From Escherichia phage vB_EcoM_swi3, in the sequence record MT768059.1: a DNA stretch of 52,782 nucleotides. One strand, written 5' to 3'. The notes beneath the pieces are model-generated. The model saw nothing but the letters and a program-made list of their open reading frames with translations, was not told the DNA's origin and searched no databases. The position numbers were made by a program, and so were the translations under genes. Positions within the stretch are counted from its first letter, which is position 1. Every line of letters starts with the position of its first letter. Of the stretch, positions 11,641 to 45,519 are shown in pieces.

Positions 11641-12618
11641 ATGTCACTGTATATTTTTAACGAACAAGTACGTTCTACCGCCACCGAACTGGTCGACCAG
11701 GACGTACAGAAGTTCAACGAAGCTTCTGCAGGTACCCTTATCCTGGGTAACCAGTACGTAATTGGTGATTACGTTGAGCAGGCAATGTGGCAGCTGGTTG
11801 ACGGCATCGCTACCCGCCGTAATGCTTACGCTGGCACCAACAAAGTTGATGCGCAGACTCTGGGCCAGATTCTGGACCGCTCTGTTAAAATCGACGGCCG
11901 TGTTGGTCCTCTGAACATTACCGGTACTATGATGCGTCGCATCGGTGCAGGTGACACTGAACCAGCAGCTGTTGTTGCTGCACAGGCTTCTGCTGCAATG
12001 TTCCAGGATTACCTGAATACCACTGCTGCATGTCTGGTAGCTGCTATCGGCGCAAACGCTGATGTTGTTCTGGACGTAACTTCAGGCTCCGGTGCTGCTG
12101 CAAACATCACCATGCAGAACCTGAACAAAGTCAACGCGAAGATGGGTGACCGTTCTCAGCAGATTCGTGCGTACATCATGCACTCTACTGCGTTCCACTC
12201 CCTCATCGATCAGGCTATCAACAACACGGAACACCTGTTCCAGATTGGTGACCTGAACGTGTACAAAGACTTCCTGGGTCGTCGTTATGTCGTTTCTGAC
12301 ATCCCGGCTCTGGTTGATGGCGCCGGTGCTTCCGCTAAGTACCGCACTCTGGGTCTGACCCCGTCTGCTGCAATCGTTCAGGTCGGCGGCCTGTACGACA
12401 TGGTTACCTCCGAGCAAACCGGTGGTGAAAACATCCTGCGTCAGATGCAGGGTGAATACGACTTCAACGTGTCGCTGAAAGGCTACAGCTGGGTCGGTCA
12501 CAAAGCTGGTCAGTCTCCGACTGATGAAGACCTGGCTGCTCAGGCTTCCTGGTCTAAAGTTGCGACTTCCAACAAAGACACCGCTGGTGTTATGTTGCTG
12601 GCTAAGTCTGCAATCTAA
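11641..12618 (+). CDS. major capsid protein
   Basis: 325 aa after scaffold; followed by terminator. Confidence 0.6.
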   Translation: MSLYIFNEQVRSTATELVDQDVQKFNEASAGTLILGNQYVIGDYVEQAMWQLVDGIATRRNAYAGTNKVDAQTLGQILDRSVKIDGRVGPLNITGTMMRRIGAGDTEPAAVVAAQASAAMFQDYLNTTAACLVAAIGANADVVLDVTSGSGAAANITMQNLNKVNAKMGDRSQQIRAYIMHSTAFHSLIDQAINNTEHLFQIGDLNVYKDFLGRRYVVSDIPALVDGAGASAKYRTLGLTPSAAIVQVGGLYDMVTSEQTGGENILRQMQGEYDFNVSLKGYSWVGHKAGQSPTDEDLAAQASWSKVATSNKDTAGVMLLAKSAI

Positions 12619-12640
12619 CCCACAAACGGGACTAACAAAA

Positions 12641-12666
12641 GGCGAGCTGACGAGCTCGCCTTTTTT
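12641..12666 (+). terminator. rho-independent terminator
   Basis: GGCGAGCT-gacg-AGCTCGCC stem then TTTTTT. Confidence 0.7.
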
Positions 12667-12667
12667 A

Positions 12668-12696
12668 TTTACACGTATAAAGTTCTGGTATATAAT
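12668..12696 (+). promoter_or_regulatory. sigma70-like promoter TTTACA-N17-TATAAT
   Basis: Read directly after the capsid terminator. Confidence 0.55.
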
Positions 12697-12722
12697 CGGA
12701 CTAAACTTGCTGGAGGCTTTCT

Positions 12723-13223
12723 ATGGCATACACACTTGTTGTGGAAGACGGTTCAATTGTTCCGGGTGCTAACTCGTATGTTAGCGCAGCAGAAGTTGAT
12801 GAATTTATCACTAACGAAGGTATTCTCATTCAACCAGGAACTGACCCGTACTACCAGGCTGCCAAAGCAGCTATCCGACTTGATAACCAGTTTAACTGGC
12901 TAGGTCGTAAGGTCAGCAAAACACAGAGTATGGCTTGGCCCCGTACTGGTCTCGGTGCATGCAATGTTGACATCGCGGAGTCTGTAATTCCGCGAGAAGT
13001 TAAGCTGGCACAGCTTTATATGATGGCCAGTGTATTGAGCTACGACGGTGAAGAAGGTGTGCGTAGCGACCAGGCTTTGCGCCGTAAGAAAGTTGGTAAC
13101 CTGGAGATTGAATACTTCGACTCCAAATCAGGCGTTACCGGTGCAACTGACCTTTGGACGTCAGACGTCAAGGCCATGCTCAAGCACCTTGTGGGTGCAT
13201 CCCTGAGAACGCGGAGAGTATAA
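12723..13223 (+). CDS. putative head-tail connector/head completion protein
   Basis: 166 aa; position after capsid gene. Confidence 0.4.
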   Translation: MAYTLVVEDGSIVPGANSYVSAAEVDEFITNEGILIQPGTDPYYQAAKAAIRLDNQFNWLGRKVSKTQSMAWPRTGLGACNVDIAESVIPREVKLAQLYMMASVLSYDGEEGVRSDQALRRKKVGNLEIEYFDSKSGVTGATDLWTSDVKAMLKHLVGASLRTRRV

Positions 13224-13711
13224 TGATTCGTATACGCCTTGAACGTCGCGACAAACAAAAGTTCGAGTTCACCTACCGTGCCTTTAAGTCGTTTGAGGGT
13301 CAAGGCGTATCAGTAGGTGTTCATCCAGAACACAACAGACGTGTAAATCCCAGGGACCGTATAACAAACGCCGAGCTAGCAATGGTGCATGAGTACGGTC
13401 TTAACGGTCTGCCAGAACGAAGCTTTCTTCGTAGTGCTGTTGGTGGCAGGGGTAAAGGCCGACAGGCAATAAACAAAGCTTTCCGCGATAATGTGCCTGC
13501 TGTTCTCAGAGGAAGCATGACTGCGCATGAGCTCAACGACAAAATAGGTCGTATGCTTGTTGACGCTGTTCACGACAGAATGGACAGTGACGTACCACCT
13601 CCTAACACCGAGCTGACAGAAGAACGCAAACGCGGGCCAGGTACACTTAGAGAATCTATGCAGTTGTATGATTCGATAGGGTACAAAGTTGGCAGAAACT
13701 GGAGGCTATAA
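13223..13711 (+). CDS. putative head completion/neck protein
   Basis: ATG at 13223 overlapping upstream stop (TAATG); ORF-track start 13154 rejected. Confidence 0.4.
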   Translation: MIRIRLERRDKQKFEFTYRAFKSFEGQGVSVGVHPEHNRRVNPRDRITNAELAMVHEYGLNGLPERSFLRSAVGGRGKGRQAINKAFRDNVPAVLRGSMTAHELNDKIGRMLVDAVHDRMDSDVPPPNTELTEERKRGPGTLRESMQLYDSIGYKVGRNWRL

Positions 13712-14088
13712 TGCTCAAGATAACTTCGCTAATGAAGGATAAGACCTTTGTAGCATTAACAGATGTTCTTCTCCGAAATGATTCGCGCTTACCAAACGGC
13801 GACTTCGAAGACGAATATACAGCTGCAAAGTATCTGTGTAACATTCAACCTGGTGCAGCTACTAACCAGCCTAACCTGTTGACTAAAGATGATGGTGAGC
13901 ATGAGTTCCCACGTATTGCGATATACTGTGGACAAGAGCTGAAGCTCGGAGACTTCGTTATCTACGAAGACCAGCCATACCGTGTATTCCGTATCGACCC
14001 ATGGAGTCGTCATGGCCACTACTACGTTACAGCAATTCTCCATAAAGGACCTCAGGGAGCTCGTTCAGAAGCTTTTAACATTACCTGA
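13711..14088 (+). CDS. hypothetical structural protein
   Basis: 125-aa ORF. Confidence 0.4.
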   Translation: MLKITSLMKDKTFVALTDVLLRNDSRLPNGDFEDEYTAAKYLCNIQPGAATNQPNLLTKDDGEHEFPRIAIYCGQELKLGDFVIYEDQPYRVFRIDPWSRHGHYYVTAILHKGPQGARSEAFNIT

Positions 14089-14539
14089 CGGTTCATGCAT
14101 TATTGGTGAAGAGTCTGGTACAGTTGATGGTACACCGTATGTTTATCTGCGCCCTGGCGACGCATATGACTTCGGACCTCCTAGAACCAGACAAGGCTCT
14201 GACGGCTTTGAGTACGTCAGCAAGCCAATGATGACGGCTGTACGTATTACAGCTGTCGGTAAGAATGCTGCTGAGCTAATGCGTAAGCTACACATAGCAC
14301 TGGGTAGTTCACCAGCTAAGCAGTTTAACCGTTTACGACATTATGCAATAACCAAAATATCGAAGATTGATAATGTCGGTGGTGCTATTGGTGCAGGCTA
14401 TGCACAGAAGTCAATGATGACTGTTGACATTAGCTATGTGCATAAAGTTAAAATTGAGCAACCGTACATCTACAAGGTTGACATCACTTGTATGGATGAC
14501 AACGGTAACAAAGCGACTGGTACAGTAGAGGAACCGTAA
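14012..14539 (+). CDS. hypothetical structural protein
   Basis: ATG at 14012 preceded by GGAG; overlaps upstream ORF by 77 nt in another frame. Confidence 0.35.
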   Translation: MATTTLQQFSIKDLRELVQKLLTLPDGSCIIGEESGTVDGTPYVYLRPGDAYDFGPPRTRQGSDGFEYVSKPMMTAVRITAVGKNAAELMRKLHIALGSSPAKQFNRLRHYAITKISKIDNVGGAIGAGYAQKSMMTVDISYVHKVKIEQPYIYKVDITCMDDNGNKATGTVEEP

Positions 14540-15162
14540 TGGCAACTGGAGTAGACCCGGAACTGCAAGCGCAGCTGGATAAGCTAACAACTGCTGTCCA
14601 GCTCATTCATGACTTCGGTATGTCAGACGACCCAAATATCCCTAACCCGGAAGGTGGTGTCATACGCACACTCGAAGGCATTAACGCTGCAATCAATGAA
14701 GCTATACCAAACTTTGAAAACGCTAACGAAGCTGCTATACAGGCACGTGCTGCTCGTGATGCGGCTATTGCAGCCAAAGAAGCTGCAGAAACCGCAGCTG
14801 AACAGGCCACAGTAGCTTCGACGTCAGCAATCTATGAGTACGGCAACGTTGCAAGTGCAGCTACAGTGACTATACCAGCTGCAGCTAAAACAATTGTCAG
14901 CCTTACTCTTAACCAGCCAAACACCGTAATTAATATCGGTGGTGTATCTGACCCGTCTACTGTTGCGCGTCAGATTACTATTGCTATTAAGCAAGGCACT
15001 GGTTCTAACAAGGTGACTTCTTGGGATCCAAGAATAAAATGGGCCAACAACAGGAAGCCCGTTCTGTCATTCCTTGTGGGTTACACAGATGTTGTTACGT
15101 TGCTGACCTTTGACTCAGGCGCAACTTGGATGGGTTTCTTTAACGGTGGATGGATTAAATAA
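14539..15162 (+). CDS. hypothetical structural protein
   Basis: 207-aa ORF, Ala-rich helical N-terminus. Confidence 0.4.
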   Translation: MATGVDPELQAQLDKLTTAVQLIHDFGMSDDPNIPNPEGGVIRTLEGINAAINEAIPNFENANEAAIQARAARDAAIAAKEAAETAAEQATVASTSAIYEYGNVASAATVTIPAAAKTIVSLTLNQPNTVINIGGVSDPSTVARQITIAIKQGTGSNKVTSWDPRIKWANNRKPVLSFLVGYTDVVTLLTFDSGATWMGFFNGGWIK

Positions 15163-18119
15163 TGCACACGATGTTGCTTAAAGACGGATCAGACCATCGA
15201 GCTAATGTCGAAAGCCTTATCGAAGGTCACCACCATTTTCTTGAGCGCAATACTGGCAGAACTGACGACGCTACGCGTCAGCACTATATCTTCAACCCAG
15301 AAGGAGTAGTGTCGAACAACCGCCACTTTATTGCGCACACTATGATGGAGTACCAACCTAACGGTGATGCTCCGTCTGAAAGTCAGTCGCTGCTAATACT
15401 CGGTGAAATTCACGCGTACCTTGCTACTAAGGAACAGCGGTACCTGGACAAAGCAATTGAGTACTTCAATGCTTACGTCAAGTACTATTACGAGGGGGAC
15501 CCCATCCCTGATACTCCTCGTCGCTGGATCGCTAACTGGCTTTGTAACGGCAAAGAGCCTGTGCTAGCCAGCTTTCCTATCAACCCTGATTCACCAACAC
15601 AAGGCGGATATAAAAATGTGCCAGTTAAATTTGTTAACGGCAAAGCACAAATCCCTCATGGTTCTCCTTTCTGGGGCGAGTACCTGGATGTTGCTACTTG
15701 GGCCCACAGGGGACACATGGCTTGGCCTGCTATTAATGGTGGTGTCCGTGTTATTAAAAATAAAGTTGACTGGGACGATATTTACAACAATTATCGCATC
15801 ACTACCATGCCAGCTGACCCGTGGAATCAGTTAGCCTGGATTGACTGGCCGAGGTATCTGGGTGAACCAAGCTACACTGTGGACTGGTCAGCTGCTGAAC
15901 CTCCTGTACATCTCATCGAGTATATTGTTGCATGGACCAATAACAAGATTGGTGTTCTACCTGGCAAAAACGATGAGCTATGGGGAGGCGAGATTCTTGA
16001 GACTGGACTGCCTGACTCTCGCAGAGGTGAGATTCAACTCCGTGACCACACTGTTAACGGTGTGTATCTGCTTAACTATGCCGTTAAGCTTCCTGTTGAA
16101 CACGGTGGTTATTTGCTTAAGCGAAATGAAGTATGGCACAACAGACCTGTAAACGTTCCACTGTACGGCGAGCTTCAGCGAGGTAATGCTGCGGATGCTG
16201 AGTTGTGGTTCTGTGACTGCTGCTATATGCTGTGGCGAATTACTAACGAGCAAAAGTATTACAACGCTTGGCAAGCTGTCCTGTTTACACTGGAGGAGTA
16301 TATTGACATCGATAAACAAGACCAGTTCTTCCGACAAGACACTCACGCGTCGTCTCCGTTTACTGATGGCATCTCTTATGATTGGTCTTATCCTGAACTG
16401 GCACAAGCTATATATTCACGTGATGAAAATGGTTATATAGTTCTACGTCAGAACGAAAAAGCTCAGTCATCTCTGGAGCAACAGGCTGTATGGTTTAAGT
16501 GTAAGCCAACAGCTAAGATACGTACAGAGGTTGGTGGCAAAGATGATGCTGGTCAGAACATCAGTGTCAAAGTGGAAATGTACATGAACCGTGAAAAGGT
16601 TGACGTCGAGCAAAACATCTATCGTTTTGTAACACAGCTACCTGCTCTTGGTGCTTCGCCTGCTAACTACGACATTCCGTTAAGCGATTTTGTCGCAGGT
16701 ACTAAGCCAGACGGTTCTGAGTATATCTTAGCTGATATTCGTTCGTCCACTGATTACGGCAATGCCTCTATTGCAGTGTCTTACCGTACTGACATACTTG
16801 ACAACAGACGTGGCAACACTGTTCGTATGACAATACCGGATAGTTCGTCAGGTGCCATTATAGGCTTTTGGCTACTGGAATCTTCCCAGGCACCTTTAAA
16901 CTCGCTGACGTATACTTCTACAGGTCCGTTGTGCATCAAAGTAACTGACGCGCAAGGCTGGAGTTGGGTACGTGATTTACCTGCCGCGCCAGGCTGGGTA
17001 ACTCAGCAGATTCGCACATGGGAGTTCAGGCTGGCTTCATACCAGGAAAACACAGGTACACCACCAACTAGCCCACAATTCGGCGAGATTAAGCAGTTCT
17101 CGTTTGTACTGCCTGATGGTGTTAATACGTCGACAAGTATTAGCTGGTACTGTGTGAATGATGTTCCGCCTCGCTATAACTGGCCAATCGGCTATACGAT
17201 TAAGTATCGTCTTACTTTCTCGGCTGATAACCCGTACACAGCTAAGCTAGGCGACTGTACTGTGCTGGACTATGAGAATGATAACCTTGCTTACACGCCA
17301 GGTGTTATTCCGTTCTCCAACATTTATAACCCTGATTCTAAGCAGTTCGATGGTTGGCACGGTATACCTTACCCTGGTTATCAGTATCCGTTTGTCTTTA
17401 CGCATGACGATACTGCAGCAGGTACAATCAGGCTGAACAACATGGTTAACTTTTTGTACGATTCTCAGCAATGGTACTTTAAGAAGTTTGGTCAGCTAGG
17501 TCCTGGTGCATCTGCTTTTATCTGGAACCGTTGGGATAACTTTAAATACGGTGTACCTGATACGTTTACCATGTATCACTGGGGTAATGGTAGTGCATGG
17601 TCAGGTTACCAGCCTCGTGCTTATTTCTCCGCAGCACGTGGATGGTATGAGCTAGTAAACCGTGGTAAGCCAGTTCCGAGTAAGCTTATTGCTTATGTGG
17701 ATAACTGGTCAAAATGGTTGCTTGACTTCATGGAAAGGTCAGGAGGTGTGTCACCTTCTAACTTCCCACAAGAAGGTGTTGCTCTGCCAGTCCCTACAGA
17801 CTTCACAGGTCACATGTGCGGACTATGGCTTGCTGGTGCAGCTATGTCAGCCCTTTGTGGGTCAACAGTATCAGGACTTGATAAGCTGATGGACATGCTT
17901 GTCAATGAGCTGGAAGACCACTATGACATAACTGGTATTCCGGGGCACGTAATGGATGGTGGTTGGTCGCCAGCGTTACGCCTTGAAACTGGTACAGGAC
18001 CTGAAAGCAACGCCATGTACTATGGTTTTTACTCTGGCGAAATATTACGAGGGTTGGGCTTATACCTGCTGTACAAAAACAAAGGGGCTAAAGCAGATAT
18101 TTATGATTTAGGCCCGTAA
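15162..18119 (+). CDS. large Trp/Tyr-rich virion-associated protein (possible glycanase/depolymerase)
   Basis: 985-aa uninterrupted ORF; aromatic-rich composition typical of carbohydrate-active enzymes; function inferred only. Confidence 0.5.
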   Translation: MHTMLLKDGSDHRANVESLIEGHHHFLERNTGRTDDATRQHYIFNPEGVVSNNRHFIAHTMMEYQPNGDAPSESQSLLILGEIHAYLATKEQRYLDKAIEYFNAYVKYYYEGDPIPDTPRRWIANWLCNGKEPVLASFPINPDSPTQGGYKNVPVKFVNGKAQIPHGSPFWGEYLDVATWAHRGHMAWPAINGGVRVIKNKVDWDDIYNNYRITTMPADPWNQLAWIDWPRYLGEPSYTVDWSAAEPPVHLIEYIVAWTNNKIGVLPGKNDELWGGEILETGLPDSRRGEIQLRDHTVNGVYLLNYAVKLPVEHGGYLLKRNEVWHNRPVNVPLYGELQRGNAADAELWFCDCCYMLWRITNEQKYYNAWQAVLFTLEEYIDIDKQDQFFRQDTHASSPFTDGISYDWSYPELAQAIYSRDENGYIVLRQNEKAQSSLEQQAVWFKCKPTAKIRTEVGGKDDAGQNISVKVEMYMNREKVDVEQNIYRFVTQLPALGASPANYDIPLSDFVAGTKPDGSEYILADIRSSTDYGNASIAVSYRTDILDNRRGNTVRMTIPDSSSGAIIGFWLLESSQAPLNSLTYTSTGPLCIKVTDAQGWSWVRDLPAAPGWVTQQIRTWEFRLASYQENTGTPPTSPQFGEIKQFSFVLPDGVNTSTSISWYCVNDVPPRYNWPIGYTIKYRLTFSADNPYTAKLGDCTVLDYENDNLAYTPGVIPFSNIYNPDSKQFDGWHGIPYPGYQYPFVFTHDDTAAGTIRLNNMVNFLYDSQQWYFKKFGQLGPGASAFIWNRWDNFKYGVPDTFTMYHWGNGSAWSGYQPRAYFSAARGWYELVNRGKPVPSKLIAYVDNWSKWLLDFMERSGGVSPSNFPQEGVALPVPTDFTGHMCGLWLAGAAMSALCGSTVSGLDKLMDMLVNELEDHYDITGIPGHVMDGGWSPALRLETGTGPESNAMYYGFYSGEILRGLGLYLLYKNKGAKADIYDLGP

Positions 18120-40653: not shown

Positions 40654-40875
40654 CTAGAAAGGCACATCATAGTCAAAAAGTTTACATCCGGAAGACAGGA
40701 CTGCCGGCGGTGGTGTTTTGCCTCCGGATAACAGGCAACCTCCTGCCTGAAAACTACGGCAGTTCGCACAGCTCATATCCTGCAAGTATATAATAAGCTG
40801 TCGGCGAACATGCCGGGGTAAAGCTTTAGCCTGGGTTGCTACCCGTTCAAATAGTTCTCTGTCATCGAGCGCCAT
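40654..40875 (-). CDS. hypothetical small Cys-containing protein
   Basis: 73-aa ORF with CANC...GGC...GC. Confidence 0.35.
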   Translation of the reverse strand: MALDDRELFERVATQAKALPRHVRRQLIIYLQDMSCANCRSFQAGGCLLSGGKTPPPAVLSSGCKLFDYDVPF

Positions 40876-42532
40876 AACCGTTTCCCCAGTCGTAGTTCAT
40901 GATTTGTGGGTAGGGTCGTTTAATCCATACCTTGATGCGCTTAGGAATAGCCAGCTCACCCTTACGGCGAATAAACTCATCGCATGTTTCAGGCGGTTCT
41001 GTTCCTGCAGCATTACGCCACCAGGCATCTGCCATTTGCTTAGCATTGCCATGGGCCTCTATATTTACCCAGGTTGTATACACTTCCAGGTTTGAGTAAT
41101 ACACAACCTTTATACTGTCAGGTCGTCCCTGCTTCTGGAATAAAGAATAGTTTACCAGCGTAACATCTTTATCCACAACACGAAGCTGACCGTTAGTCAT
41201 TACCTCTTCTTCTGATGAAGTGAAGGCAATGGCAGGTCCGTTAACTGTAAACTCAAATTCATGTCCGCACATCGGATATACACCATTCTCGTCTGGCGTA
41301 CTTCCTTTAGCCGGATGCTTACATGTACGGGCTGCATAGCCACTTACCTGGTGACAGATAGGGCACTCTTTACCGCCAGGTGTTTTCTCTGACCGTTTCT
41401 TTTTCTTCTTACCAAGACGAGGTGGAACAGCCGGGTCGTCAATAGGCCCAAGGTCAATGGTGTTAGATGTAAAGTCCATAACAAGACAGTCATGCTTGCC
41501 AGGCGCTGTACGTAATCCTCGACCAAGTATCTGCACCCACAAAGCAACAGACGTGGACGGGCGCAAGATGCCGAGCATATCAATCTCAGGATAGTCAAAT
41601 CCTGTAGTCAATACGTTTACGTTTACACAGACCCGTGCTCGTCCGCTTGTAAACTCTTCCAGTGCGGCTTCACGTTCTTTCTTTGTAAGACCGCCATGCA
41701 CAACTACAGTCTGCCACCCTCGCAGATTAAATTCGTCTGCTATGTTGTGGGCGTGCTCAACACTTGTGGCAAATACAAGAACGTGGTTCCTGTCTTTACC
41801 GTAGTGCATCATCTCACGAATAGCCGCGACTGTTATACTATGCTGGTTGGCTACCTTCTCAAGCTCTGACGGGATGTAGTCACCCATCCTTTCGCCAACA
41901 TTACTGGTGTCAATCTTGGTTAACACTTTCTTGTTGACCAGGCGCGACAGGAAGCCTTCATTTACCAGTCGGGTGAATGCGTCAGGTGTTGTAAGGTCAT
42001 AGCAGATGTCGGTAAATATACCACAGTCCAGCAAGTGACCACCTGCCAGGCGATACGGAGTTGCTGTGAGTCCTGTTACCTTTACCTTAGGATTAAGCTC
42101 TTTGAAGTGAGCAATAACCTTACGGTATGTTGTTTCAGACTTCTCAGGAACAAGATGGGCTTCGTCAATGAATATAAGATTGAACTTACCTGCTTCTTCC
42201 AGGTTCTTAATAATTGACTGTACAGATGCTACAACGATACGGCCTGAAAAGTCTTTATGTCCTGCACCTGAAGAGTATATTGATACTGGTGCTTGTGGCC
42301 AGTGACGAACAATCGCTTTGGCGTCTTGTTCAACCAGCTCCTTGACATGTGTCAATATAAGAATGCGCTGACGGGGATAGCTGGTAAGAATATCCTTCAT
42401 CAGCATACCAAGCACAGGTGATTTACCTGAACCTGTCGGCATGACAATAAGTGGATTACCACTATAAGAATTGAAGTACGACCACCAGGCTGTGACCGCT
42501 TCTTGTTGATACCAGCGAGCTTCAAAAGCCAT
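40862..42532 (-). CDS. superfamily 2 DNA helicase (DEAH box)
   Basis: 556 aa; Walker A PTGSGKS, DEAH (FIDEAHLV), C-terminal Cys pairs (CPICHQ ... CKHP). Confidence 0.8.
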   Translation of the reverse strand: MAFEARWYQQEAVTAWWSYFNSYSGNPLIVMPTGSGKSPVLGMLMKDILTSYPRQRILILTHVKELVEQDAKAIVRHWPQAPVSIYSSGAGHKDFSGRIVVASVQSIIKNLEEAGKFNLIFIDEAHLVPEKSETTYRKVIAHFKELNPKVKVTGLTATPYRLAGGHLLDCGIFTDICYDLTTPDAFTRLVNEGFLSRLVNKKVLTKIDTSNVGERMGDYIPSELEKVANQHSITVAAIREMMHYGKDRNHVLVFATSVEHAHNIADEFNLRGWQTVVVHGGLTKKEREAALEEFTSGRARVCVNVNVLTTGFDYPEIDMLGILRPSTSVALWVQILGRGLRTAPGKHDCLVMDFTSNTIDLGPIDDPAVPPRLGKKKKKRSEKTPGGKECPICHQVSGYAARTCKHPAKGSTPDENGVYPMCGHEFEFTVNGPAIAFTSSEEEVMTNGQLRVVDKDVTLVNYSLFQKQGRPDSIKVVYYSNLEVYTTWVNIEAHGNAKQMADAWWRNAAGTEPPETCDEFIRRKGELAIPKRIKVWIKRPYPQIMNYDWGNGYGAR

Positions 42533-42553
42533 TTATAATCTCCTCATTAACTT

Positions 42554-42582
42554 TATATATTATACCACTTCCTTGTGGTAAA
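42554..42582 (-). promoter_or_regulatory. sigma70-like promoter on minus strand
   Basis: Reverse complement reads TTTACCACaaggaagTGGTATAATatataa; exact -10 choice ambiguous. Confidence 0.4.
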
Positions 42583-42590
42583 GTATACTT

Positions 42591-43469
42591 TTATTTTAAG
42601 GAAAGTTTAACGGGCTTCTCATCCTGCGGGAAGACATCAGCAGGGCGATAATCATCACAAGCTGCTAATTGCTCTTCGATTGTTTCGAGTTCTTTCTGGT
42701 GCTTGTTGCAATACCACACTTTGCCCTGAAGCGGTTTACTGTAATGGCAGGTTCTGCAGTTCCTGTCTGGCATTGCCCCTTTGTGGCACAGGTGATGGTA
42801 TTCGCACATCCCTGGTTTGCACTCCCACCAAATAGGCGATTCAGAAATCTTCGGCATATCCAAACCAGATTCCGCATATACAACAGCCTCCGCTTTACTC
42901 AGTTGTATGTCGCTTTCCAGTAAGTCAATCTCGACCACTTCAAAATACATCTCGTCAGTGTTCTTATTGATTGCAATGTACACAGCTTGATTCAGCTTAA
43001 GCTTCCGCATGTATACCTGCATCTGGGCGTAGTGTACCGGCTTACTTGCTTTAACAGACTTGAGCTTGACTAACTCCTTAAACGACTTATCGCCATGCGT
43101 CTTGAACTCAGCAAGTGCCCATACGCCTTTGTATTTAATTACACAGTCACAAGACCCAGAGAAGATGTCATTGAATTCGTGTATGCGCCACTGCTTACCA
43201 GTCTTGGGATTGACGTCCAGCACTTCGTCACATACGGTGCGAAGCCACTTTACAATTCTGCTTTCTTCAAGGTTACCACGTTCAAACAGACGAAGTTGCT
43301 TAGCCGAAAACTTCTCCTTGAACGACCAGTGCAGAACGTGCCAAAGATAGCGATAGCAGTTGTGTCCTATCTGCGATGCTCCAAGATGCCCGCGTCGTTC
43401 TTCTCTTTCGTGGGCTTCGACTATCTTGATGTCAATACGTTTCTGCAGGTCGTCAAACGGACTTGGCAT
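42591..43469 (-). CDS. PD-(D/E)XK nuclease, Cas4/RecB-like, with C-terminal Cys cluster
   Basis: Start at ATG 43469 after GGAG; motif D ... EFK (DCVIKYKGVWALAEFK); C-terminal CKPGMCEYHHLCHK ... CRTCH. Confidence 0.55.
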   Translation of the reverse strand: MPSPFDDLQKRIDIKIVEAHEREERRGHLGASQIGHNCYRYLWHVLHWSFKEKFSAKQLRLFERGNLEESRIVKWLRTVCDEVLDVNPKTGKQWRIHEFNDIFSGSCDCVIKYKGVWALAEFKTHGDKSFKELVKLKSVKASKPVHYAQMQVYMRKLKLNQAVYIAINKNTDEMYFEVVEIDLLESDIQLSKAEAVVYAESGLDMPKISESPIWWECKPGMCEYHHLCHKGAMPDRNCRTCHYSKPLQGKVWYCNKHQKELETIEEQLAACDDYRPADVFPQDEKPVKLSLK

Positions 43470-43938
43470 TGTTAAACTCCTCAACGCTGAATTCATCGTA
43501 TACAATATTATGTGCCCACAAATGGGCGACGGCATTTGCCATACTGTCTTTCCATTTGGATTGTGAAGCTGTATGAGCCAATGCAACTACCCGAACCAGG
43601 TTAAGGTTGGCTATCAGCATATCTGCACAATGTTCGCACGGCGGGTAGGTTATGTAGATGGTAACCGGGCCTAATGAAGGAGTGTCTAACTCTCTCCTTA
43701 TATTAGCTAAGGTGTTTATCTCGCTATGAATAGTTAGAGCGTTCTTAAGGCTATTAGGCACTATTCTTATAGAGTCTAACTGCGTAGGCAGACCATTATA
43801 TCCAGTGGAAATAATACGCTTGTTCTGGTCCACAAGAACGCTACCGACTTGACGTTTCGGGTCCTTCGACCAGCTCGCAACTTCACAAGCTATGCGCATA
43901 AACCGCCTGTCCCACTTGTCCATCTTCTTCTTTTGCAT
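43453..43938 (-). CDS. dCMP deaminase
   Basis: 161 aa; zinc-binding HSE and PCEHC motifs of CMP/dCMP deaminases. Confidence 0.8.
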   Translation of the reverse strand: MQKKKMDKWDRRFMRIACEVASWSKDPKRQVGSVLVDQNKRIISTGYNGLPTQLDSIRIVPNSLKNALTIHSEINTLANIRRELDTPSLGPVTIYITYPPCEHCADMLIANLNLVRVVALAHTASQSKWKDSMANAVAHLWAHNIVYDEFSVEEFNNAKSV

Positions 43939-43999
43939 GGTAGTCTCCGTATACGAAAATAGGGGCCGAAGCCCCTATTGAATATCTACTCGGCAGGGA

Positions 44000-44527
44000 T
44001 TATTCTTCCCAAGGAGCTGCTGCACCATCGTCAGCACCAGGTGCCGTTGCAGTAGCACTCGCACCTGCACCTACTTTCTTCGTCGTCGATGCAGTTGCTT
44101 GAGAATGACCACCTACTGCAGTAGTTGCTTCAGTTGACGCTTTGTATTCGCGAATATCGTTTTGTGGGTCGTACTCACCGGTCTTGTCGATACGAACACC
44201 AACTTTACCAGCTACAATACGGTTTTCCAGTAAGTCGGTAGAAGTCAGTTCAACAATACCCAGCGCACGACACAACGCAGACAGTTTGCGATGACCGATT
44301 TCAACAGCTTGTGCATTAGGGTTGGAGTAGGTAATCATGTCAAATACAACACGGTTAGCGAACTCACCTTCCTGCACTTTCAGACGCAGGGACAGGTAAG
44401 AACCAGTGCCTGCTTTAGTCGGCTTCAGCTCAACCTCTTCAATCATGAAGTTGTACCAGCCTTTCGGGATCGGGTCAAAAGACTGTTGCGGTTCGACGGT
44501 AGAGCTGTTGAAGTTTAATTCAGCCAT
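44000..44527 (-). CDS. putative single-stranded DNA-binding protein
   Basis: 175 aa; Ala/Thr/Gly-rich flexible C-terminal region ending in acidic residues; adjacent to Sak4-like ATPase. Confidence 0.35.
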   Translation of the reverse strand: MAELNFNSSTVEPQQSFDPIPKGWYNFMIEEVELKPTKAGTGSYLSLRLKVQEGEFANRVVFDMITYSNPNAQAVEIGHRKLSALCRALGIVELTSTDLLENRIVAGKVGVRIDKTGEYDPQNDIREYKASTEATTAVGGHSQATASTTKKVGAGASATATAPGADDGAAAPWEE

Positions 44528-44634
44528 TGTTTGGTATCCTGTTTAAGTTTAGTTTAATTTCGTTTAACGCTTTACCGGCAGCGTTCGGCCGTGATGCTTA
44601 TTATACGCCACTTTTTATCATGGCGTAAACACTT

Positions 44635-45519
44635 TTATTCGCTGGTTCCTTTCTCAGCTTGAGCGGCTTTCTTCGCCATCCAGGCTTGGTGCTTCTCTTT
44701 CGATTCGTCCGAACCGATTTTAGTGAGCTGCACGTTCGGGTCGTCGTTCTGCATCTGTTCTGCAGCTCGACCTGTCAGGAGCAGGTAGCTGTCTGACTCC
44801 GGATGATAGTACCACAGCTGGTAAGGATGATAGCCTTGCAGCTTGTCATAAATCCAGCCCAGGTCAGCAGGTTCACGTGCATCCAGTTCACGGCCTGGTG
44901 CGTTACGGCACTTAGCTTCCCATTGATAGTCGGGCTGTGTCTGGATGTAGCGCTCGCTGTTACCATTTGCATCAGGTGCAGTCATACGTAAAGCAAGCAC
45001 CGCATCCATAAGATACGGCAGTTGTTTAGGTAACTGCTGACCAGGCATAAGTGGTGAATACAACATTGCACCACTAACCTCGTCCTTGTTCTTCTCAAGC
45101 TTGCAAAGGTATGCAACGCTGAAAGGCAAGTCACGGAACTGACGCATGATATACATCATCTTGTCGTTGGTGTTACCATACGCCTGTCGTTTGTCGTTGA
45201 CCTGCGACTTCTCATAGTCCAGACAAACTTCAGCCACATCTGACAGCGAGTCGAAAATCAGATGCTCATACTTCTGCGCATCCTTACTTTCGGTAAGCCA
45301 TTTGTACAGCGCCAGAATGTCGTTGAACGTATTGATTGGCGTAGAGTCGATGTCAGCATCTGCGATCGACATCAAACCGCCTTCAGCGTTAATGACAAGA
45401 ACCTTATCGTGAGGCAAGGTCTTAGCCAGGCTGGTTTTACCAACACCTGATGCGCCGTAAATAGCGACCTTAGGTCGCTTATTTTCTACGGCTTGTTTAG
45501 TAGATACAATCTGAACCAT
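44635..45519 (-). CDS. RecA-fold P-loop ATPase, Sak4-like
   Basis: 294 aa; Walker A KVAIYGASGVGKTS near N-terminus, Walker B-like LIFDSLSD. Confidence 0.5.
   Translation of the reverse strand: MVQIVSTKQAVENKRPKVAIYGASGVGKTSLAKTLPHDKVLVINAEGGLMSIADADIDSTPINTFNDILALYKWLTESKDAQKYEHLIFDSLSDVAEVCLDYEKSQVNDKRQAYGNTNDKMMYIMRQFRDLPFSVAYLCKLEKNKDEVSGAMLYSPLMPGQQLPKQLPYLMDAVLALRMTAPDANGNSERYIQTQPDYQWEAKCRNAPGRELDAREPADLGWIYDKLQGYHPYQLWYYHPESDSYLLLTGRAAEQMQNDDPNVQLTKIGSDESKEKHQAWMAKKAAQAEKGTSE

Follow-up and report, generated by a model that had tools for sequence, protein, structure and literature searches.

A Cas4/RecB-like nuclease with two four-cysteine sets in a Sak4-type recombination cassette of Escherichia phage vB_EcoM_swi3

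Escherichia phage vB_EcoM_swi3 (sequence record MT768059.1; the window analyzed here is the whole stretch of 52,782 nucleotides) encodes on its minus strand a 292-residue nuclease of the PD-(D/E)XK superfamily, whose cysteine-rich C-terminal stretch is composed of two separate four-ligand sets, with CKPGMCEYHHLC and CRTC belonging to different predicted metal sites. We consider it probable that this stand-alone protein with a RecB/Cas4/lambda-exonuclease fold is the DNA-end-resecting enzyme of a phage recombination module, carrying a Cas4/AddB-type cysteine staple together with a second four-cysteine (Cys4) domain.

Nuclease core and the cysteine staple

The open reading frame that the earlier note had placed at 42591-43469 is an exact minus-strand gene preceded by a ribosome-binding site, with its ATG start at 43467-43469 and its TAA stop at 42591-42593. 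Conservation of the encoded protein was counted in two sets, an alignment of 121 homologues and 95 independent cluster representatives at 23-42% identity; a strict regular expression for all motifs matched 148 of 215 sequences and proved too rigid, so that the alignment-based count was used instead. The gene and its motifs are as follows.

42591..43469, minus strand: coding sequence (open reading frame) of the 292-residue Cas4/RecB-like PD-(D/E)XK nuclease, orthologue of BP63 gp62
43477..43482, minus strand: Shine-Dalgarno sequence GAGGAG (plus-strand ctcctc), 7 nucleotides 5' of the nuclease ATG, read from the sequence
43356..43358, minus strand: codon of C38, the N-terminal fourth staple ligand, in the family motif G-x-x-C-x-R-x-L-W; invariant in 121/121
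43263..43277, minus strand: RecB motif I, G65...E69; both residues invariant in 121 sequences
43101..43148, minus strand: catalytic core D108 ... E121-F-K123 (PD-(D/E)XK motifs II and III); invariant in 121 sequences
43011..43025, minus strand: QxxxY motif Q149-M-Q-V-Y153, typical of RecB-family nucleases; Q149 and Y153 invariant in 121
42786..42821, minus strand: C217-x4-C222-x5-C228, the three C-terminal staple ligands; invariant
42648..42767, minus strand: HiPIP-like mini-domain, residues 235-274, C238-x2-C241-x12-C254-x16-C271 with invariant R239 and W252

The invariant residues G65, E69, D108, E121, K123, Q149 and Y153 make up a complete RecB-type active site, and the motifs follow the order (G...E, D, (D/E)xK, QxxxY) of the RecB/Cas4-type PD-(D/E)XK superfamily. 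The motif D ... EFK recognized in the earlier note is therefore borne out, with D108 located in GSCDCV, E121-F-K123 located in LAEFKTH and QxxxY completing the site. Among the 95 distant representatives, D108 is kept in 89, E121 in 85 (with Asp in a further 5) and K123 in 89.

An AlphaFold2 model of the nuclease built on 95 sequences (pLDDT 96.5, pTM 0.90) has a restriction-endonuclease-like alpha/beta core fold. Foldseek comparison of this model with the Protein Data Bank (PDB) returns as top matches two solved stand-alone Cas4 proteins, 4ic1 (SSO0001, E=5e-7) and 4r5q (Pcal_0546), followed by LHK-Exo, lambda exonuclease, MGME1, Cas4 within Cas4-Cas1-Cas2 complexes, and RecE. Furthermore, the protein matches PHROG 1990 ("Cas4-domain exonuclease") over its full length (E=5.8e-101, 276/290 profile positions), and it is a full member of that family with no difference from it. 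Individual Pfam scanning of 95 homologues detects PDDEXK_1 in 42, Cas_Cas4 in 13 (weakly, best E=1e-4), YqaJ in 6 and Exo5 in 2, which places the family in the same clan. Motifs, profile and fold matches together indicate that the core is a RecB/lambda-Exo/Cas4-type nuclease.

With respect to the cysteines, eight are conserved in the 121-sequence alignment (C38, C217, C222, C228, C238, C241, C254 and C271), and all eight persist at 26-33% identity in PaMx42, 16-3, RcThunderbird, Synechococcus phage Ssp-JY38 and Vibrio phage 13VT501A. Seven of the eight are found in 95/95 representatives and C38 in 89/95, the remaining 6 being gapped at the N-terminus. One N-terminal plus three C-terminal cysteines is the defining arrangement of the Cas4/AddB staple (PMC3466216; PMC5704561), and this is what C38 and C217/C222/C228 provide. 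The family consensus of the staple, W-x-x-C-K-x-C-x5-C-H (CxxCx5C), is that of Cas4, while the Rosemountvirus clade that includes swi3 has Cx4Cx5C by way of a two-residue insertion. A profile alignment pairs the C217-C228 segment with CKYCIFSVIC of the Cas4 protein SSO0001 (4ic1), not significantly (E=2.1). By analogy with Cas4 and AddB, the staple most likely binds an iron-sulfur (Fe-S) cluster.

The strings on which the earlier note had based a "C-terminal Cys cluster" are both present, CKPGMCEYHHLCHK at residues 217-230 and CRTCH at residues 238-242, and the cysteine-rich tail therefore stands; the single cluster does not, as there are two four-ligand sets, of which the first includes the N-terminal C38 that had not been listed and the second is HiPIP-like and not Cas4-like. 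Its reading of the protein as a Cas4/AddB-type iron-sulfur nuclease is supported by the motifs, the staple, the Foldseek matches and the PHROG and RefSeq names, with the cluster itself a prediction.

Stand-alone Cas4 proteins (SSO0001, 4IC1; Pcal_0546, 4R5Q) share the RecB-type core with D, ExK and QxxxY, as well as the staple, with the swi3 nuclease. They differ from it in sequence (14-22% similarity, below the Pfam Cas_Cas4 threshold), in CRISPR/cas context, which the swi3 nuclease does not have, and at the C-terminus, where the swi3 protein has approximately 60 extra residues with the HiPIP-like Cys4 unit that Cas4 lacks. AddB, AdnB, Dna2 and Exo5 likewise combine the staple with a RecB nuclease fold and a functional helicase pairing, and they too are without the extra unit. 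Whereas AddB-type nucleases are fused to a superfamily 1 (SF1) helicase-like polypeptide, the swi3 nuclease is a separate polypeptide of 292 residues, and the helicase encoded beside it is a RadD-like member of superfamily 2 (SF2).

A second, HiPIP-like four-cysteine unit

The second set follows the pattern N-C238-R-T-C241 ... W252-x-C254 ... Q-x3-C271. In a separate model of residues 205-292, the part from 235 to 274 folds at pLDDT >90 and the staple segment without C38 does not, indicating that the second set is an autonomous mini-domain. In the predicted structure, this unit of approximately 40 residues has a HiPIP-like three-dimensional fold, with the following structural matches (score, aligned residues and root mean square deviation).

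2y8n_B, HPAD gamma: 4.0, 48 residues, 2.5 A
4pkf_B, BSS small subunit TutG: 2.7, 41 residues, 1.8 A
9pzj_E, BSS beta chain: 2.7, 42 residues, 2.2 A
3h31_A, Rhodothermus marinus HiPIP: 2.5, 42 residues, 2.2 A
9o8u_B, MASS small subunit MasB: 2.2, 41 residues, 1.8 A
9o8u_F, MASS small subunit MasC: 2.1, 36 residues, 1.6 A

The glycyl-radical-enzyme small subunits among these matches are HiPIP-like and bind [4Fe-4S] clusters (2026 review, PMC13450708). HiPIPs and these subunits (2Y8N_B, 4PKF, 9PZJ, 9O8U, 3H31) have in common with the swi3 unit the ligand order CxxC-x(12-16)-C-x(13-16)-C, and the order is collinear between the swi3 unit (CxxC-x12-C-x16-C) and Chromatium vinosum HiPIP (CxxC-x16-C-x13-C, checked against PDB 1cku), which likewise has a Trp before the third cysteine. 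Unlike HiPIPs, however, the swi3 unit is fused to a nuclease and is not a soluble electron carrier or accessory subunit, and its cluster is predicted. An hhalign comparison of the unit with C. vinosum HiPIP, which lacks significance (P=0.31), brings the four cysteines into register and places W252 opposite W60. Pfam scanning of C-terminal fragments detects no HiPIP match and no consistent family covering the Cys4 unit, with scattered single weak matches to zinc ribbons, DUF7140, LRV_FeS and zf_DPOE_2.

When a profile restricted to this unit is run against 1.84 billion representative proteins, 1,489 are retrieved at E<=1e-3, and those inspected are the nuclease or its fragments, plus one repetitive artefact (P0123). 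The idea of a mobile module was therefore rejected, as the matches inspected show no other protein context; the unit is found only with this nuclease, indicating a family-specific fusion. In the literature we found no two-cluster or HiPIP-bearing Cas4-like nuclease, and the second, HiPIP-like Cys4 domain seems to be undescribed, a point of modest novelty.

We propose a second [4Fe-4S] cluster as the probable cofactor of the HiPIP-like unit, whose function would be structural or in docking. A structural Zn site of the zinc-knuckle or ribbon-like kind, with the role of the protein unchanged and with either one Fe-S and one Zn site or two Zn sites in total, is a possible but clearly less probable alternative. 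Cys4 sites are chemically ambiguous, and the crystal structure of the DUF3799 nuclease (Eubacterium rectale EUBREC_2131, PDB 3L0A), which has no second Cys4 unit, contains Zn at the staple position (PMC3466216). In addition, a genuine zinc ribbon is present in the RadD-type helicases encoded next to these nucleases (PMC9049331), weak matches to Pfam zinc-ribbon or zinc-finger models occur, each in 1 of 32 homologues (E 1e-3 to 0.1), and the likeness to HiPIP is not significant at the sequence level. The pattern itself speaks against zinc, since the order is CxxC...C...C, the spacers are long as in HiPIPs and an invariant Trp accompanies the third cysteine, where zinc ribbons typically have two CxxC knuckles.

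The unit could conceivably act as a redox-sensitive element. A more elaborate version of this idea, which we put forward as speculative, is that the nuclease holds two Fe-S clusters, one in the staple and a [4Fe-4S] in the C-terminal HiPIP fold, the latter being more than structural and tuning nuclease activity or partner docking (RadD-like helicase, single-strand DNA-binding protein) to redox state or iron supply, maybe together with a small Cys4 protein that has an SSB-tail-like tip and is encoded just after the helicase. If true, this would make it the first DNA-processing enzyme with a reported HiPIP-like module.

The recombination cassette and the proposed role

In swi3 the nuclease lies in a minus-strand gene order of Sak4-like AAA_24 protein, DUF669 single-strand DNA-binding protein (SSB), dCMP deaminase, nuclease and SF2 helicase.

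44635..45519, minus strand: Sak4-like (AAA_24) single-strand annealing protein (PHROG 124, E=5.8e-51; Pfam AAA_24)
44000..44527, minus strand: DUF669-type single-strand DNA-binding protein (Pfam DUF669, PHROG SSB families)
43453..43938, minus strand: dCMP deaminase between SSB and nuclease (Pfam dCMP_cyt_deam_1)
40862..42532, minus strand: RadD/YejH-like SF2 helicase of 556 residues, downstream of the nuclease (Pfam ResIII and Helicase_C)

The adjoining helicase mentioned in the earlier note is thus present, and it is of the RadD type: residues 1-403 match RadD in PDB 6jde (E=1.2e-62), and a match to the NCBIfam RadD model (E=1.4e-86) falls short of its equivalog cut-off. The 3' end of the deaminase gene and the start of the nuclease gene overlap by 17 nucleotides. 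Promoter-like sites are no commoner than in shuffled sequences, and we therefore rest no operon claim on the promoter and terminator scan.

We surveyed the context of 84 related loci (80 from IMG/VR and 4 more). Genes for Sak4-like and DUF669-like proteins are located upstream on the same strand in 51 of the 51 loci that extend 3 kb or more on that side, and a helicase gene follows within 1.5 kb on the same strand in 63 of the 75 loci with at least 1.5 kb downstream. The cassette order repeats in a 53-kb metagenomic phage, in PaMx42 (Pseudomonas), in RcThunderbird (Rhodobacter) and in a cyanophage; a Magnetococcus prophage has the same cassette plus Prim-Pol, a serine recombinase and an S24 repressor, and Rhizobium phage 16-3 has it in looser form. 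The nuclease is therefore co-located with a Sak4-type recombination module in swi3, in the surveyed loci and in cultured phages alike. A tblastn search with the swi3 dCMP deaminase matched 0 of the 84 related loci, and its absence between SSB and nuclease in distant relatives indicates that the deaminase is specific to the Rosemountvirus clade and lies outside the conserved cassette.

Sak4 and its cognate DUF669 SSB form a single-strand annealing pair (PMC5928155), and the classic partner of a phage annealase is a 5'->3' exonuclease, whose action exposes 3' tails (PMC2896510). RadD binds SSB and speeds strand exchange (PMC10238739, PMC8887467). Under the proposed role, the nuclease would most likely start from double-strand ends or nicks and degrade the 5' strand there, and the resulting 3' single-stranded tails would be coated by the DUF669 SSB and annealed by the Sak4-like protein. 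The RadD-like helicase encoded next downstream probably aids unwinding or branch processing, and the module as a whole would serve recombination-dependent replication, concatemer formation and repair. The staple of C38 and C217/C222/C228 would hold the protein together, its equivalent being [4Fe-4S] or [2Fe-2S] in characterized relatives, and the C238/C241/C254/C271 domain would bind a second [4Fe-4S] as a structural or docking element. The strong conservation of the Sak4-SSB-nuclease-helicase cassette backs the suggestion, already made in the earlier note, of end processing for recombination.

Genes for an exonuclease and a single-strand annealing protein also lie side by side in the case of lambda exonuclease, LHK-Exo, RecE and YqaJ. 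These enzymes have a very similar fold and no cysteine cluster, whereas the swi3 nuclease has its eight conserved cysteines, and its partner annealase is Sak4 (RecA/RadB-like) and not Red-beta, RecT or Erf. Membership of the lambda exonuclease/YqaJ family itself does not follow, the YqaJ model being matched weakly and in few homologues, as given above.

Several points weigh against the proposed role and the predicted clusters. In Pfam the swi3 nuclease matches only PDDEXK_3 below threshold (E=0.006), with no match to PF01930 or YqaJ; in NCBIfam there is only a sub-threshold GxxExxY match, and PDB sequence searches with the protein, a full-length profile and a C-terminal profile gave nothing significant. 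A profile search against Cas4/RecB families, as the earlier note had proposed, thus succeeds with PHROG 1990 and fails at the curated Pfam and NCBIfam thresholds. As no curated threshold is passed, we call the protein Cas4-like by fold and motifs, and not a CRISPR-associated Cas4. Four-cysteine sites of this kind can hold Zn instead of an Fe-S cluster. With respect to polarity, most of the top structural relatives of the nuclease model act on 5' ends, and Cas4-family enzymes also include endonucleases or 3'->5' nucleases. Gene adjacency does not prove a physical complex of nuclease and helicase, and in the literature we found no experimental or biochemical characterization of any member of the nuclease family.

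A Dna2-like or AddAB-like replication or flap nuclease, working with the RadD-like helicase at forks, Okazaki flaps or stalled intermediates, is an alternative that we regard as rather doubtful. The helicase gene directly 3' of the nuclease in most loci, often with stop/start overlap, would fit such a role, as would the clamp and DNA polymerase genes that follow the pair in PaMx42 and RcThunderbird and the SSB-tail-like DD[IV]PF tips found on nuclease, helicase or clamp across phages. The linkage to the Sak4-like and SSB genes is tighter still, however, being seen in every locus with sufficient upstream sequence, and RadD acts in RecA strand exchange, that is, in recombination (PMC8887467). 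The flap-nuclease and annealase-partner roles are in any case not mutually exclusive.

The earlier note had also raised interference with CRISPR adaptation, for which we find no support. A counter-defense Cas4 mimic altering host spacer acquisition has a precedent in the Cas4-like proteins of Campylobacter phages (cited in PMC5704561), and the swi3 protein belongs to the Cas4-like PDDEXK_1 superfamily; we nevertheless hold this to be very improbable, because no cas1, cas2 or CRISPR genes are found around the swi3 nuclease or in the annotated and called gene sets of 9 related loci, and because its gene forms part of a replication and recombination cassette. In addition, the family is spread over phages of many hosts with nothing to tie it to a CRISPR type, and the Cas_Cas4 model is touched, weakly, by just 13 of 95 homologues. 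The CRISPR array or cas1/cas2 genes that would stand beside a CRISPR-associated Cas4 are thus absent from all inspected loci. It is just as improbable that the enzyme degrades host DNA to supply nucleotides, as could be read from its gene overlap with the dCMP deaminase and from thymidylate synthase and NTP pyrophosphohydrolase genes a few kb downstream, since the deaminase is clade-specific and the recombination cassette is kept in distant relatives without a deaminase there.

Neighboring proteins, relatives and significance

Public annotations name the helicase "DEAD box/RNA helicase", and its similarity is specifically to RadD/YejH. It carries a cysteine motif, CPIC...C...C, at approximately residues 390-430, the site of the zinc ribbon in E. 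coli RadD, and its last approximately 150 residues have no match. Directly after it, overlapping its stop codon, lies a gene for a 73-residue protein (40654..40875, minus strand) with four cysteines (CANC-x7-C-x17-GC) and the C-terminus DYDVPF. The acidic C-terminal tip of bacterial SSB is DDDIPF, which DYDVPF resembles. No Pfam family covers the protein, a member of PHROG 23504 (unknown function); its strings CANC...GCKLF are reminiscent of CANCQF...GCQLF in C. vinosum HiPIP. An identity as DUF6511 was rejected, there being no BLASTP similarity and no Pfam match. Small proteins with CxxC...C...PP...GC-x2-[WYF]...[DE][DE][IV]PF also follow the helicase in several distant relatives (L058 7268-7480, L073 5657-5875, L083 4833-5036 and L089 7269-7514). 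The 73-residue protein may be a metal-binding mimic of the SSB tail, with the RadD-like helicase or host SSB partners as its docking site.

Across the cassette, DD[IV]PF endings shift among long nuclease forms, the helicase, the sliding clamp and the small cysteine protein. They are carried by the nuclease in L007, L029 and L081, by the helicase in L059, L066, L079 and L087, and by the clamp in L086 and L088, with P0045, P0058, P0077, P0107 and P0132 as further sequences listed for such tips; the strict pattern is found in 16 of 90 sequences (89 loci plus swi3). That the tips move between proteins suggests that cassette proteins are recruited through an SSB-tail-binding pocket.

The source genome is a BP63-like Rosemountvirus. 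The region has 96-98% nucleotide identity to PEA2-3, 8-19, brunost and BP63, and positions 40800-44600 are 96.4% identical to Escherichia phage vB_EcoM_IntR (OM313460), with other phages reaching 97.7%. At the protein level, the nuclease is 97-99.7% identical to sequenced Rosemountvirus proteins, the highest value being that of Salmonella phage brunost. The BP63 orthologue gp62 is named "Cas4-domain exonuclease" in RefSeq, while other records use YqaJ-like recombinase domain protein, exonuclease or hypothetical protein, and in the related phage ZCSE2 the nuclease is listed as "Cas4 family exonuclease" (PMC7232530). The nuclease gene itself is therefore already known and annotated, and is unsurprising as a finding.

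A database search with the nuclease retrieves 912 homologues at E<=1e-3, and the family, which comprises approximately 1,500 clusters at 50% identity, is found in 413 of 50,697 sequenced phage records, covering many Proteobacteria-infecting genera and one cyanophage. Phages with PHROG 1990 or a "Cas4-domain exonuclease" include Rosemountvirus, Nonagvirus, Seuratvirus and Septimatrevirus. A relative on 72-kb phage contigs (L004/L005) shares the cassette in the same gene order and encodes, just downstream of the helicase (12525-16087), QueC, a QueD-like PTPS, GTP cyclohydrolase I and a radical SAM enzyme; such 7-deazaguanine DNA modification genes beside the cassette fit the presence of the family in Nonagvirus and Seuratvirus.

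In Salmonella phage UPF_BP2 (NC_048649.1, L091 1990-3289) the nuclease is annotated as two overlapping coding sequences, gp18 and gp17, in a region approximately 440 nucleotides longer than in swi3 and with no dCMP deaminase annotated there, which could be due to a duplication or insertion, a frameshift or an assembly problem. Homologues from Magnetococcales (P0034, P0063, P0070 and P0112; L003) carry the NCBI name "oxidoreductase", probably because of their cysteine-rich tail; as the Magnetococcus copy is found in a prophage with the cassette, this name is almost certainly wrong.

An exonuclease paired with a phage annealase is a textbook arrangement, which the nuclease gene fits, and what is added here, of modest novelty, is anatomy, namely a second, HiPIP-like four-cysteine domain and a tight four-gene cassette. 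If the second site binds [4Fe-4S], the protein would be a small, easily purified two-cluster nuclease from E. coli and Salmonella phages and, with its neighbors, would form a natural Sak4/SSB/exonuclease/helicase set for recombineering tools. If true, this would also provide a test system for the roles of Fe-S clusters in DNA enzymes, whether structural, redox-sensing or docking.

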